64,000 nucleotides of DNA from a virus (IMGVR_UViG_3300034520_000200:1-64000); one strand, 5' to 3'; shown: positions 13,233 through 24,742, counted from the stretch's first letter. Notes: a model not told the origin generated them from the sequence alone. A program made the numbers and translations.

Positions 13233-13298
13233 TATTGAATCCTCCTTTTATTTTATTTTCAAGGTTCAATAAATCGAATAATACAAAAATGGAGGGGT

Positions 13299-13706
13299 TT
13301 AGATTACCCCTCTTACTAATAGCCTCTTTTTTTCTTGTTCTTTAAAATTCTCCAAAGAAGCTTTTACTATATCTTTTATATGGTCTGCTGTTTGAGTTTC
13401 ATATTTATATCTTACTGTTCCCAAATGTTCATTGTAAGCTTCTTGTCTTGTGTAATATTTCATCCCTGGAAGTTTTGCCAATTCTTCTGGAAGTTCAGTA
13501 TTAATTTCAAGGACAATTTCGCCTGCAGAATAGACCAATTTAAGAAGACGTACATTCCCCTTAAAGTAAGAATATCCCGTCGTTATTGGTCTTTCTACAA
13601 AACCTTTGTTTTTGAGGACCATTGACCGAATAACTTTTAAAGACTTATCAAATTCATTGACAAACTCCTTTTCTTCAGGCTGTTTCTTAATCTTTTTAAC
13701 GGGCAT
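13299..13706 (-). CDS. H(L/M)GT-family paralog 2
   Basis: RLLKLV..VLEIN..EAYNEHLGT. Confidence 0.75.
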   Translation of the reverse strand: MPVKKIKKQPEEKEFVNEFDKSLKVIRSMVLKNKGFVERPITTGYSYFKGNVRLLKLVYSAGEIVLEINTELPEELAKLPGMKYYTRQEAYNEHLGTVRYKYETQTADHIKDIVKASLENFKEQEKKRLLVRGVI

Positions 13707-13867
13707 CTTTTACTTACCTCCTTTCTTTAGATTTTAATTTTTCCTTTGATTATATATTACCATAATTTATTCTAAAAGTAAATACAGTAGAAAACAAATG
13801 GTGTCTCTTTTTTTAACATTTTTCAAATAAAAAAAGAGAAAGGAAAATTTTTTTTTATATTTAATCT

Positions 13868-14263
13868 TTAATCTGAAGAATCAACAGAAAATGTCAATCC
13901 ACATTTCTTACAAGTATAAGTATGTATGAATCTTTCATGACTTTCTTCAGTATATTCATGTTTACATCCAATTTTAAAGACTTTTATTTCATCATTTCCC
14001 ATATCTACTACAGCGTAAGCTACATCAAAAAAGAAAAATATCCACGTATTATAGATTCTACTGCAAGGGTCTTTAGTATTAATATATACTTGTCTAAAAT
14101 CAATATATTTTGGTGAGAATGAAAAAATCTTTCTCCAAAAATTTTTGATATTACTTTCTTCAAAGGGTTCTGGTAATTCATTGTAGTTGTTGAATTTTTC
14201 AATATACTTAAACTCGTCTTTAAATTTACTACGATCGTCTGCAATTGAATTTACTTTATACAT
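13868..14263 (-). CDS. hypothetical protein with C-terminal Zn ribbon
   Basis: GCKH...CKKCG; likely start is the ATG after GGAGGTG. Confidence 0.7.
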   Translation of the reverse strand: MYKVNSIADDRSKFKDEFKYIEKFNNYNELPEPFEESNIKNFWRKIFSFSPKYIDFRQVYINTKDPCSRIYNTWIFFFFDVAYAVVDMGNDEIKVFKIGCKHEYTEESHERFIHTYTCKKCGLTFSVDSSD

Positions 14264-14324
14264 ATCATCACCTCCTTCCAAGATGAATTTTAGAAACTAT
14301 AAAAGTGGCTGCTCCTAAAAACAA

Positions 14325-14963
14325 TTATTGATTAACTTCTACTGTCTGTATATTTTCTGTTTGATTTTCTTCTTTACGATCTTCTACTTTCACAGGTAAC
14401 GTTTCTACAGGAGCTTGGGCTGCAATTTCAATTTTGCCCTTCTTCTTTTTATATTCATTAAGCCGATCTAAATCTTCTTGAGTCATCTTTCTTGTTACAA
14501 CTTCTGAAGCAGCAACTGAAGCTTTTTTATTCTTCTTATTGAGTTTGGATTTTCCAGACTTTTGGATAGTCTTAGAAGTTGAAGCTTCTTTCTTTTCTTC
14601 ACCCTTCCGATTTACCATATCTTGGAAATTCTTCCAAGCCTCATGAAGAGCTTCTTTTACTTCTGCTTCGTCATTGCTCTTCAGAATGTGGACTAAAGTT
14701 CCAAGGTGTTTCTTAGACGCTTCTACTTTCGAGAATGTTTGAAGATTTGGACCAAGTTTTTTAATCGTTGTATCAGATAATTTCACGTTCAATTCTAAAT
14801 ATACTCCTTCTTTTCCTGTCTTAACTAATTTGCAAAACCTATCACTTCCGCTGAAGAAACTATTCCCTGTGGTATTTTCTTTCATTGAAAGTCTGTCTTT
14901 CACTAAATTCTTGATTTCCTTCAAAGTCTTATCAAACCCAAACTTTTCTTTATTTTCTGCCAT
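14325..14963 (-). CDS. H(L/M)GT-family paralog 3 with charged C-terminal tail
   Basis: RFCKLVK..YLELNV..EASKKHLGT; close paralog of 21097-21570. Confidence 0.8.
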   Translation of the reverse strand: MAENKEKFGFDKTLKEIKNLVKDRLSMKENTTGNSFFSGSDRFCKLVKTGKEGVYLELNVKLSDTTIKKLGPNLQTFSKVEASKKHLGTLVHILKSNDEAEVKEALHEAWKNFQDMVNRKGEEKKEASTSKTIQKSGKSKLNKKNKKASVAASEVVTRKMTQEDLDRLNEYKKKKGKIEIAAQAPVETLPVKVEDRKEENQTENIQTVEVNQ

Positions 14964-15125
14964 TTTGGCTCCTCCTTTTTAAATTCAAATTTCTTTTCGG
15001 AGCAGCCACTTAAATTCTTTATTAAATTTTCAAGGTCCATTTTATTTTCAAATATATTATAAAATAAAGTTATCTGAAAGTAAATATATTCTACTGACTT
15101 TTTCAAACTTTTTTTTAAACTTATT

Positions 15126-15266
15126 TCATTCAATATAATCTTCTAAACATCTGTCTAACAAATAAGCTACTCCCACCACCCACAACGGAGAAGAAAACCA
15201 AATCACTGTCATTATTTTACTAAACAAAATAGCTTCTCTCCAATGATTTATAAGTTCTTTTATCAT
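15126..15266 (-). CDS. small membrane peptide (46 aa)
   Basis: AGGAGG RBS; hydrophobic IMTVIWFSSPLWVVGVAYLL. Confidence 0.55.
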   Translation of the reverse strand: MIKELINHWREAILFSKIMTVIWFSSPLWVVGVAYLLDRCLEDYIE

Positions 15267-15269
15267 TTT

Positions 15270-15506
15270 CTATCCTCCTATCTTTATTAATGACATTGAT
15301 TTATCTAATTTCAATTCTTCTTCACTTTTTATAAAATTTTCTATATGTTCTAAAATTCTTCTATTTTCTACAATTTCTCCTTGATGTTTAAGCCATCCTA
15401 AAAGATTCGAAATCAAAAATAGTTTTCCATCTGCATTCAAATTCATAAATCTTTTATATATTCTGTCATATCTTTCTTCTATACTTTCTTCCTTCTTTTC
15501 TACCAT
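15270..15506 (-). CDS. hypothetical protein
   Basis: AAGGAGGTG RBS and conserved promoter. Confidence 0.7.
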   Translation of the reverse strand: MVEKKEESIEERYDRIYKRFMNLNADGKLFLISNLLGWLKHQGEIVENRRILEHIENFIKSEEELKLDKSMSLIKIGG

Positions 15507-22681: not shown

Positions 22682-22766
22682 AGTATGAATTCCTCCTTTA
22701 AGACTTTATTTTATTTGTGTGAAGGAAAAGCAAAATTTTGCTTTTCCTTCATTTTTTGATAAGTTT

Positions 22767-22895
22767 TTAATTCTGTATTTTCTTACGCCAGTTGATATAC
22801 TGCTTGACATATTCTCTGAATGAGATAGGATTTTCAACATCTTCGCAATACATCTTATACATTTTTTTGAGATTTCTGAATAGCTTTAGATTCAT
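22767..22895 (-). CDS. small hypothetical protein (42 aa)
   Basis: promoter and AAGGAGGTG RBS; MNLKLFRNLKK... Confidence 0.6.
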   Translation of the reverse strand: MNLKLFRNLKKMYKMYCEDVENPISFREYVKQYINWRKKIQN

Positions 22896-23026
22896 TGTTA
22901 TGTTCACCTCCTTTATTTATATTTTTTTGTTTTTATTATATAATAAAGTTTTCAAAAAATAAATAAAAATGTTTCTAACTGTTAAGTTAAATGGGAAGGG
23001 CTAAATTAGCCCTTCCCTTGTTATTC

Positions 23027-23482
23027 TTATTGCATTTCGTAATGTTCAAGATATTCTTCTACCAGATATCCTCTTAGTGCATTTCTTACTCCATTAAAGA
23101 ATTGAGCTTTTTCATGGTCATCTAGATCTTTTAATTCTTTATCAAGCTCATTTTCAGGATAATTTTTGTAAGTGCTTACAAAGTATGGAGCTTCGAATTG
23201 ATCGATTAGTTTTTTCAGATCTTCAATTGATGGCTTATCTTCTTCAAAGCTGTCAGAAAATCCAGTACCAAAGATGACTTGGCTTTCGAACCATTCTACT
23301 CCTTTCATATAAAGTTGATGTGCGCTTAGCTTCTTGCTCATTTTAACTCCTCCTTTTTCATAATTTGTTGTAATCTTATGCATAGTTTTTCCAGTGTTTT
23401 CAGGGCCTACACATCTTGACATGTTAATCTCCTCCTTTTCATTTTTAGAATTTAAGGGGCTCTTTATTAAGTTTTCGTTCAT
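23027..23482 (-). CDS. hypothetical protein with three in-frame RBS-ATG starts
   Basis: AGGAGG before ATGs at 23482, 23422 and 23341. Confidence 0.65.
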   Translation of the reverse strand: MNENLIKSPLNSKNEKEEINMSRCVGPENTGKTMHKITTNYEKGGVKMSKKLSAHQLYMKGVEWFESQVIFGTGFSDSFEEDKPSIEDLKKLIDQFEAPYFVSTYKNYPENELDKELKDLDDHEKAQFFNGVRNALRGYLVEEYLEHYEMQ

Positions 23483-23895
23483 TTTATTCACCTCCTTTCC
23501 AGTTGACTTAGTCTATTTAATTTTATTATTTTTTATATTATAAAATAAAGTTTTCAAAAAATAAATAAAAAAGTTTCTAACTCTTATTGTACATTGTCTT
23601 TTTATTCTTACAGTGTACTCTGCGCTTACTCTTTTTTTGTACTCTTTCAGTGTACTCTAATTTTGTATTCTTTCAGTAAGACTCTTACAGAGGGCTCTGC
23701 TCTATAAATGTTTTGTGTTCTTTTTAGTGTGCTCTTATTCTTGTTCATTGTAGTTTGTAGTCTTGTAGAGACTCTTGTCTGGAACTCTGTTATGCAGTCT
23801 TCTTTACTCTTATAGTGTAAAAGGGCTCTGAAGTTAGTTCTAGTCGGTTTTATGTTAGAAAAGGGCTCTGTTCTGGTGTTATATAAGGAGAGGCA

Positions 23896-24045
23896 TTACC
23901 TCTCCTTATATATTTCAATAGTAATCTGGATTACTGCTGTTATGTATATCTTCTGGAACTCTTTATAATGTATCTGGTTTTTGAACTCTTCTGGAAAACC
24001 TCTATATACTTCTTTTAACTTTCTCTCTTTTAACTGTTTAACCAT
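23896..24045 (-). CDS. small hypothetical protein (49 aa)
   Basis: AAAGGAGG RBS; stop embedded in a hairpin. Confidence 0.55.
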   Translation of the reverse strand: MVKQLKERKLKEVYRGFPEEFKNQIHYKEFQKIYITAVIQITIEIYKER

Positions 24046-24099
24046 ATTAAAACCTCCTTTAAATTTAAATTGAGGGGGGGGATTGCTCCCCCCTTTGCC

Positions 24100-24465
24100 T
24101 TATCCCTTGATTCCCGGGATCGGCCGTTTCCCTTGTTTCCAGGCCTCGGCGATTAGTTTTACCACCTTCCGCAGTTCTTCCAGGTCCCTCGTTTTCAACC
24201 TGCCGCACATTGTCCCGAGGTGTTTTGCATAGGCTGTTTGAGGAGTGATGTGTTCGTAATTGATTGCTTCGTATTGGATTGGGATGTTAACCTCGAGGTT
24301 GATTAGTGTTTGGTCTTTTACTGCGACGAGTTTTGCGATTCGAGTACCTGCCACGAACCACGTGGTGCCGGTGGTGCGTGTTTGGGGCTCTGCCTTAATC
24401 GATTTCACCTCCTCTTGTATGATTTTTACCCCTTGCAGATAGTTGTTGGTGGTTTTTGTGGACAT
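24100..24465 (-). CDS. H(L/M)GT-family paralog 5, first gene of the - arm, GC-richer
   Basis: RIAKLV..LEVNI..AYAKHLGT. Confidence 0.75.
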   Translation of the reverse strand: MSTKTTNNYLQGVKIIQEEVKSIKAEPQTRTTGTTWFVAGTRIAKLVAVKDQTLINLEVNIPIQYEAINYEHITPQTAYAKHLGTMCGRLKTRDLEELRKVVKLIAEAWKQGKRPIPGIKG

Positions 24466-24742
24466 TTAGTCCAGCCTCCTTTTATTTTTTATTATATTTT
24501 ACGCGGGTTGCGCGTAAAATTTATTTTTATATTTAATTATCAAGGTGCGCGATTATAATTTTAATTTTAAATTTAAAATTTTAATTTTTAAATTTAAAAT
24601 TATTTATTATTTAATTATATTATATTATATATTTAAAAAGAAATAAATTAAAAATTAAAAGGGGTGGGGTTATTTTTTTTATTAATAAATTAATATTTTT
24701 AAAACCGCTTTCCTACCCTCTCAGCCCTCACACACCCTTTCG

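Follow-up and report, generated by a model that had tools for sequence, protein, structure and literature searches.

Why does a short word that reads like the boxA signal of bacterial rRNA (rrn) operons recur in the 5' leaders of small genes of a phage? The question is raised by the virus record IMGVR_UViG_3300034520_000200, a single contig of 86,065 bases and 28% G+C, of which positions 1-64000 form the window (the whole 64,000-nucleotide stretch that was analyzed, the first 64 kb of the record). The record is ~54% complete by CheckV and comes from soil and subsurface metagenomes, all of one study; its ribonucleotide reductase, terminase, portal, HK97-type capsid, sheath and baseplate genes mark it as a myovirus-like phage. 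Its early block comprises ~25 small minus-strand genes at 12.2-24.9 kb, and a recognizable family was found in none of them. Six leaders of this block carry the word. We consider it likely that this word is a true boxA of the rrn type, carried in the 5' leaders of a subset of the early phage messages, and that the phage probably borrows the host rRNA transcription machinery for some messages of its own.

A boxA-like motif in six early leaders

The motif GVACCTTGAWAA had six matches, all on the minus strand, versus 0.08 expected; the maximum in shuffled sequences was one, and none of 100 shuffles reached six. These are the six sites of the original prediction, a reading of the sequence that had proposed them as rrn boxA-like elements, and all six were confirmed at their coordinates. 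The genome-wide count that it had called for as a check returned only these six copies in the whole 86-kb record; the plus strand has none, and all lie within 12-25 kb. The strict core G[A/G]ACCTTGAAAA is common to five of the six; copy 6 has the weaker form GCACCTTGATAA. A broad rrn-derived consensus, G.[AT]C[CT]TTGA.AA, matched the genome six times, whereas 40 first-order Markov simulations gave 1.65 matches on average and never more than 4; the enrichment is of the specific ACC subtype and not of boxA-like words generally. All six copies are intergenic, sense to the genes and located in 5' leaders upstream of an AGGAGG ribosome-binding site, as had been proposed. The flanks differ completely between the copies, while the 12-mer is kept. 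The copies, whose numbers also serve as site numbers below, are as follows (SD, Shine-Dalgarno site).

13256..13267, minus strand: boxA copy 1, GAACCTTGAAAA, 9 nt before the SD of gene 12717-13232; it directly follows a terminator hairpin (13312-13292), with no promoter recognized upstream
15027..15038, minus strand: boxA copy 2, GGACCTTGAAAA, 17 nt past the -10 of promoter 15084-15056; it abuts the 5' arm of a helix enclosing gene 14325-14963
18841..18852, minus strand: boxA copy 3, GGACCTTGAAAA, 13 nt past the -10 of promoter 18894-18866; the SD of gene 18476-18823 follows after 9 nt
19591..19602, minus strand: boxA copy 4, GAACCTTGAAAA, 59 nt past the -10 of promoter 19696-19668; the SD of gene 18961-19566 follows after 11 nt, and the motif continues CTAAA, like rrn leaders
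21651..21662, minus strand: boxA copy 5, GAACCTTGAAAA, 23 nt past the -10 of promoter 21714-21686; 22 nt separate it from the 5' arm of a helix enclosing gene 21097-21570
24537..24548, minus strand: boxA copy 6, GCACCTTGATAA, the weaker form; its leader belongs to the block's first gene, 24100-24465, and upstream lies only a weak candidate promoter (24592-24564)

The motif lies close to the SD at sites 1, 3 and 4 (9, 9 and 11 nt), where its 3' end is 23, 17 and 24 nt from the AUG and thus within 50 nt of it. At sites 2, 5 and 6 the distances are 50, 66 and 56 nt to the SD and 63, 80 and 71 nt to the AUG, beyond 50 nt. At least 11 near-identical predicted sigma-A-type promoters run across the early block on the minus strand. 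Eight of them fit AGAAACAT-TTTATTTAC-N18-TA[TA]AAT, and three further variants with a TTTATT -35 were recognized by eye near 23.55, 22.96 and 22.25 kb.

15056..21714, minus strand: span of the eight near-identical early promoters, four of which are followed by boxA

Four of the six copies thus stand behind strong predicted promoters, starting 13, 17, 23 and 59 nt past the -10; of the remaining two, one has the weak candidate promoter and the other the terminator hairpin listed above. The TTGAAA within the motif was considered as a -35 element and rejected, as no usable -10 follows. When the promoter consensus was searched as a DNA pattern in IMG/VR, 69 single, apparently chance matches were obtained, none of which (0 of 69) carried the motif. 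The genes downstream of the motif include three paralogs, two of them 76% identical, and three unrelated genes; duplication explains the repetition of the motif only in part.

Match to rrn boxA elements

Comparison with rrn loci supports the motif as a boxA by sequence. The rrn leaders compared come from bacteria other than the host of the phage, which is itself identified only as a spore-forming Firmicute (see below). GAACCTTGAAAA is an rrn boxA letter for letter, as it occurs in the 16S leader of two of the three rrn loci of one bacterial order (genomes G007 and G008). Those two leaders carry GAACCTTGAAAACT ~110-130 nt before the 16S gene, and the third leader has GTTCCTTGAAAACT. In G008, GAACCTTGAAAACT also lies 115 nt before a 23S gene; a second boxA in the 16S-23S spacers of loci L113-L115 was not found with the landmarks used and was found instead on another contig. 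The 16S leader and the 23S leader are described as the canonical boxA positions (PMC10250234), and the boxA of the cyanobacterial 16S-23S spacer (internal transcribed spacer, ITS) is given as GAACCTTGAAAA in a preprint (10.1101/2021.01.08.426015).

A survey of 31 rrn loci of the phylum to which this order belongs showed how variable the natural element is. The form G-[A/T/C]-[T/A]-C-[T/C]-TTGA-[A/C]-AA was present 68-191 nt before the 16S gene in 19 of the 31 (GATCT in seven, GTTCT in five, GTTCC in two, GAACC in two, and GCTCT, GCACT and GTTCTTTGACAA in one each) and absent in 12, three of which have truncated leaders. Elements of spore-forming Firmicutes were taken from plasmid-borne rrn operons. 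Clostridioides difficile has GAACTTTGAAAA in the 16S leader and GCACTTTGAAAA in the spacer, Priestia megaterium has GAACTTTGAAAA in the 16S leader and GTTCTTTGAAAA in the ITS, and Paenibacillus polymyxa has GATCTTTGAAAA in the leader and GCACCTTGAAAA in the ITS. The GAACC and GCACC forms of the phage are at most one base from the C. difficile, Priestia and Paenibacillus elements. The identification of the motif as a boxA was thus borne out at the level of sequence, by identity to real rrn elements and by near identity to those of named spore-formers. The original prediction had compared it with GTTCTTTGAAAA as the Bacillus-type boxA; the match itself stood, but the comparison was understated, since GTTCTTTGAAAA is one of several natural variants.

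Positions reported to matter for boxA are kept in the phage. The function of the E. coli boxA (GYTCTTTAANA) is described as abolished by mutations of C4 and T6 (PMC5725501), and both bases are retained in all six copies. In the crystal structure of Aquifex BoxA with NusB-NusE, nucleotides 1-8 are read by the complex, and the CCUU core of the phage motif corresponds to nucleotides 5-8 of that BoxA (PMC3177189).

The background of the 12-mer in 146 bacterial genomes is ~1 per 1-2 Mb; the phage has five in 86 kb, all intergenic. Extra copies of GGACCTTGAAAA in genomes G002, G007 and G008 were considered as boxA elements of cellular mRNAs and rejected, since 17 of the 18 extra 12-mer copies inspected lie inside long open frames, where they read Asp-Leu-Glu-Lys. 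In IMG/VR, 16 isolated boxA-SD-ATG modules were found before unrelated genes, with the form G[A/C]ACCTTGAAAAC...GGAGG...ATG and some of them after a hairpin (L176, L232, L244, L254, L274, L278, L280, L283 and others). The viral contigs that carry them are diverse (37-68% G+C), and the modules are indistinguishable from chance.

Leader structure and gene-enclosing helices

The structure of the boxA-bearing leaders and of their surroundings was examined by folding and by comparison with shuffled sequence. One boxA copy is preceded by a hairpin.

19608..19652, minus strand: leader hairpin 5' of boxA copy 4, z = -5.0, with none of 200 shuffles as stable

The original prediction had called this hairpin boxB-like. 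It is real, but it precedes only one of the six copies (site 4), and it is not diagnostic because the hairpins that precede boxA in rrn operons are of diverse kinds. At sites 2, 5 and 6 the predicted structures 3' of boxA are SD-sequestering or are arms of long-range pairings.

The two longest non-trivial long-range inverted repeats of the block each enclose a whole gene.

21588..21628, minus strand: 5' arm of the helix around gene 21097-21570, 41 nt, 83%, pairing with 21058-21098
21058..21098, minus strand: 3' arm of the same helix, -44.2 kcal/mol
14988..15028, minus strand: 5' arm of the helix around gene 14325-14963, 41 nt, 78%, pairing with 14286-14326
14286..14326, minus strand: 3' arm of the same helix, -31.0 kcal/mol

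When duplexes between the 5' and 3' untranslated regions were computed for 25 genes, these two were the strongest, and both follow boxA; the other 23 ranged from -8.4 to -26.6 kcal/mol. For both enclosing helices, none of 300 shuffles reached the energy.

A comparable unit was found on an unrelated metagenome contig, L285, which encodes a 39%-identical member of the same protein family and which, with 41% G+C, therefore belongs to a different phage. Its leader contains a TTTACT-N17-TACAAT promoter, then GTTCTTTGAAAA, then a 5' arm just before the SD. The 3' partner of this arm lies ~80 nt beyond the stop codon, and the energy of the pairing is -55.1 kcal/mol. A match to the boxA consensus arose in 14 of 20,000 shuffles of the leader, and the helix energy was reached in none of 300. 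A boxA followed by a 5' arm that pairs beyond the gene is thus present at two of the six phage sites and at the L285 gene; the enclosed units are open reading frames (ORFs) of 157, 212 and 230 amino acids with SD sites, and not structural RNAs. The order promoter, boxA, arm, SD, gene, arm recurs in L285 with unrelated arm sequences and a different natural boxA variant, which fits a host-matched Nus site rather than the site of a phage-specific protein.

The paralog family to which the enclosed genes belong has six members in the phage (21097-21570, 14325-14963, 24100-24465, 13299-13706 and 6307-6750, and genome 78787-79713), and only 36 representatives among 1.84 billion proteins. The structure model has a pLDDT of 88. 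Its best Foldseek match has an E value of 0.07, and in the VIA comparison the family gave middling Z scores of 6.8-8.2 to frataxin/YdhG, DUF419, YjbR and the C-terminal domain of T4 MotA; no Nus-like or N-like fold was among the matches listed. Searches of cultured phages by tblastn with the family protein and with the L285 protein gave no match.

Host type and relatives of the phage

Two genes of the phage bear on its host. An alpha/beta-type SASP gene lies at 3450-3653 on the minus strand of the window (PF00269, E 3.5e-24), and a SpoIIID-like regulator gene lies at 24936-25223 on the plus strand (PF12116, E 8.4e-15), divergent from the early block. The nearest named relatives of the SASP are in metagenome-assembled genomes (MAGs) of Clostridia, the nearest of all being a Eubacteriaceae MAG at 65% identity. 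The presence of the SASP and SpoIIID-like genes therefore indicates, on gene content, that the host is a spore-forming Firmicute.

No close relative of the phage was found among cultured phages or in IMG/VR: the early block had no megablast match among cultured phages, the portal reached no more than 31% identity by tblastn, and queries of IMG/VR with the capsid protein, one early protein and the family alignment brought up no useful relative. In four DNA runs of the one study, one single-nucleotide polymorphism was found in 13 kb between runs, and the near identity of the runs therefore leaves no usable natural variation. A 111-kb phage-like contig, G001:C3 (L070, L079-L084), has a capsid protein 55% identical to that of the phage, 35% G+C and a SASP gene at 70246-70437. 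The phylum of its bin, the same that supplied the 31 rrn loci, was considered as the host clade and rejected: SASP occurs in only one of the 146 genomes of that phylum, on G001:C3 itself, and this contig is therefore probably mis-binned. The rrn leaders of that phylum are valid only as examples of natural boxA.

Proposed use of the host rRNA machinery and alternative explanations

How might a bare boxA act on these messages? We propose that host RNA polymerase would start at the phage sigma-A-type early promoters, that host NusB-NusE (S10) would bind the nascent boxA, and that an rrn-like antitermination complex would then assemble on the polymerase without a phage N protein. The boxA is described as "necessary and sufficient" for the rrn complex (PMC10250234). 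The statement of the original prediction that no N-like protein is recognizable held in the 86 kb, where no N-like arginine-rich protein was found: no 18-residue window has more than five arginines, and windows with five lie in structural proteins or spurious ORFs. Genes for NusB, S10 and NusG were likewise not found in the 86 kb of this record, ~54% complete. NusB-NusE binding, formation of the complex and every functional effect discussed here are inferred. If the proposal is true, GRACCTTGAAAA is expected in the 16S and 23S leaders of the host.

Three effects can be envisaged. We rank first that neither Rho nor internal terminators would readily stop the polymerase as it crosses multi-gene units and leaders that are long, structured and poorly translated. 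The region contains 24 terminator-like hairpins, versus 5.5 +/- 2.0 in shuffles, and among nine minus-strand terminator-like sites, both internal ones lie in boxA units.

21015..21035, minus strand: internal terminator-like hairpin of the copy-5 unit, followed by the genes 20987-20535 without a promoter of their own
13292..13312, minus strand: internal terminator-like hairpin of the copy-2 unit; boxA copy 1 and two further genes lie downstream

Ranked second is a tether of the 5' leader to the polymerase, by which the 5' arm would meet its 3' partner and close a leader-trailer-like helix as in pre-rRNA, likely a substrate of RNase III. Ranked third is an effect on translation: where boxA lies 9-11 nt from the SD, the tether would delay ribosome loading, as for E. 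coli suhB. A more far-reaching version is possible, which we offer tentatively and hold to be doubtful: the helix-bearing genes might be miniature rRNA-operon-like units around protein-coding genes, in which a boxA-recruited Nus complex would chaperone the leader-trailer helix and RNase III would excise the message. This would amount to Nus-assisted mRNA maturation for one protein family in unrelated phages, with the boxA variant tracking their hosts.

Against a boxA that recruits the host Nus complex stand several points. The motif is behind only four of the at least 11 early promoters, with seven promoter copies lacking it, and the promoters and transcription starts are predictions. The association of internal terminators with boxA amounts to two cases and is not significant, and the terminators at the ends of boxA units would still need to work. 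The rrn elements compared belong to bacteria other than the host; the order with the exact 12-mer match is not the host clade of the phage, and GGACC, with G at position 2 in two phage copies, occurs in none of the rrn elements examined. The related contig G001:C3 is without any boxA-like word. The two phage helices belong to the 76%-identical paralogs and are therefore not fully independent. When the leaders were folded in isolation, the CCUU core paired with the AAGG of the SD, and the mean unpaired probability of nucleotides 1-8 was 0.16-0.71 in the full leaders; in these models the boxA site may be occluded or may act by pairing.

That last result leads to the possibility that the motif is a cis anti-SD element, which would tune translation by RNA pairing alone and resemble boxA as a by-product. 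CCUU-AAGG pairing is predicted in leaders 1, 3, 4 and 6, and at site 1 the motif and its 5' flank form a 12-bp helix with the SD region in the predicted fold; sites 2 and 5 have separate SD-sequestering stems. A 4-bp pairing is weak, however (-2.1 kcal/mol and z = -0.65 at site 3), the gap between motif and SD is 50-66 nt at sites 2, 5 and 6, and L285 has CUUU, without the CCUU complementarity. Conservation of all 12 positions, including GRA and GAAAA, is left unexplained, and we find this explanation quite unlikely. The motif could also be the binding or cutting site of another factor and match boxA by coincidence; this factor might be an RNA-binding protein or translational repressor encoded by the phage, or an endoribonuclease of phage or host. 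T4 RegA acts on early messages, and such a factor would suit a motif that is limited to a subset of early leaders, lies near the SD at three sites and occurs in an early block rich in ORFans. It is unlikely in our judgment: a 12-of-12 identity to rrn boxA is very improbable by chance for the genome's one over-represented leader word, and the L285 leader, with the same architecture but another canonical boxA variant, is not what one would expect of a phage-specific factor.

The copies might instead be inert passengers with no present function, remnants of duplicated leader modules or of a former capture of an rrn leader; in favor of this are the paralogs downstream of three of the six sites and the promoters, which are near-identical copies. 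The wholly different flanks around a retained 12-mer, the three unrelated downstream genes, the seven promoter copies without the motif and the retention of boxA in L285 at 39% protein identity make this very unlikely. We consider it least probable, and only barely credible, that the motif acts as DNA, as an operator at which a repressor or roadblock protein would shut off early transcription. Four copies do lie just downstream of promoters, and the fold of the paralog family is weakly like the T4 MotA DNA-binding domain (Z 7.1), but the motif lacks dyad symmetry. The strictly sense orientation, the variable promoter distance (13-59 nt) and the one copy without a promoter are better fitted by an RNA signal.

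Returning to boxA as a host Nus site, the original prediction had further suggested that the boxA-bearing genes coincide with the targets of a predicted small RNA (sRNA) in a coupled circuit of boost and shut-off. The overlap was found (four of the five best duplexes; one-sided Mann-Whitney p = 0.004). It stems from a start-region (ribosome-site) word that the genes share, the sRNA segment 7579-7610 being antisense to such a start region, and because this word and not boxA drives the overlap, the coupled circuit is not supported as proposed. The boost is likewise an assumption, since a boxA 6 nt from the SD represses translation in E. coli suhB.

Comparison with known systems

To our knowledge, nearly all work on control by Nus factors and boxA concerns E. 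coli, its rRNA operons and lambdoid phages. The phage sites share with the rrn leader, which is served by NusA, NusB, NusE, NusG, SuhB and S4, the 12-mer, a strong promoter upstream and, presumably, independence of an N protein; at two sites they also share with the rrn leader and trailer a 5' arm that comes after boxA and has its pairing partner on the far side of the enclosed gene. Unlike an rrn operon, the phage encloses a protein-coding message with its own SD and not a structural RNA, and in place of a single long operon it has short separate units, five or six in number.

A bare boxA in a non-lambdoid phage is already known from T7, for which a boxA antitermination element is described downstream of the early promoters used by host RNA polymerase (PMC3709561, citing Savalia et al. 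2010). The likeness lies in a boxA behind early host-polymerase promoters. As described there, T7 has one element behind the A0-A3 promoter cluster and a Gram-negative host, whereas here several copies stand in separate leaders, near ribosome sites and helices, in the phage of a spore-forming Firmicute. In the suhB 5' untranslated region of E. coli, a boxA 6 nt from the SD is described as repressing translation, after which Rho terminates transcription (Baniulyte et al. 2017, PMC5725501). This boxA, which depends on host Nus factors and acts without N, lies in an mRNA leader near the SD, as do phage sites 1, 3 and 4 (9-11 nt). The same paper gives 0-7 putative boxA sites per whole bacterial genome, versus five or six in 12 kb here. 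The lambda nutL and nutR sites are likewise phage-borne boxA elements in early leaders, and nutL is described as preceding the N gene leader, which is structured and sensitive to RNase III (PMC5725501). The present sites differ in that no boxB lies 3' of boxA, the sole adjacent hairpin (site 4) being 5' of it, that no arginine-rich N-like protein was found, and that boxA is of the full rrn type.

Among the literature matches listed, there was no report of an rrn-type boxA in a phage of Gram-positive bacteria, of multiple boxA copies over separate mRNA leaders, or of boxA coupled to gene-enclosing helices around protein-coding genes. A phage of a spore-former thus appears to use the bare rRNA signal repeatedly on ordinary messages, with enclosing helices like those of pre-rRNA. 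If true, this would extend the T7 precedent to Gram-positive hosts and provide natural constructs for the effect of the rrn complex on mRNA, namely read-through, folding of long-range helices and translational delay. The boxA variant of a phage might then mark its host (GAACC/GGACC in the phage, GTTCT in L285).

Further observations in and around the early block

In the same metagenomes, a separate 482-nt contig with a depth of ~214, versus ~2-20 for the phage, matches window positions 18834-18874 (41 nt spanning boxA copy 3) with five differences and has -35-like and SD-ATG flanks of its own. Its depth implies that a far more abundant replicon has a similar promoter-boxA-SD module. The same palindromic hairpin occurs as a direct repeat at 18462-18489 and 18945-18972, each time across the stop codon of a gene with a boxA leader (18476-18823 and 18961-19566).

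A conserved word, TTTGAAAATAAAA, recurs in the predicted start regions of early promoters (15040-15052, 19652-19664, 20232-20244 and 21670-21682). It is similar to the 3' half of boxA, and primary transcripts from these starts would open with GAAAAUAAAA. In the minus-strand intergenic regions of 16259-24391, many co-oriented AGAGCCC or AGAGTAC words (GGGCTCT on the plus strand) lie upstream of early promoters; these clusters resemble arrayed sites for the binding of a protein. Between promoter 15567 and gene 16838-17047, the 1.3 kb at 15507-16837 have raised G+C and no credible ORF, and neither an Rfam family match nor a tRNA was found there. Outside the window, the paralog gene at genome positions 78787-79713 contains five tandem 18-base repeats (79052-79138) that encode a Glu/Lys-rich segment. 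Two direct-repeat pairs of ~25-33 nt and an extremely A+T-rich stretch lie at 24640-24935, between the early block and the SpoIIID-like gene, and this segment may be a control region.

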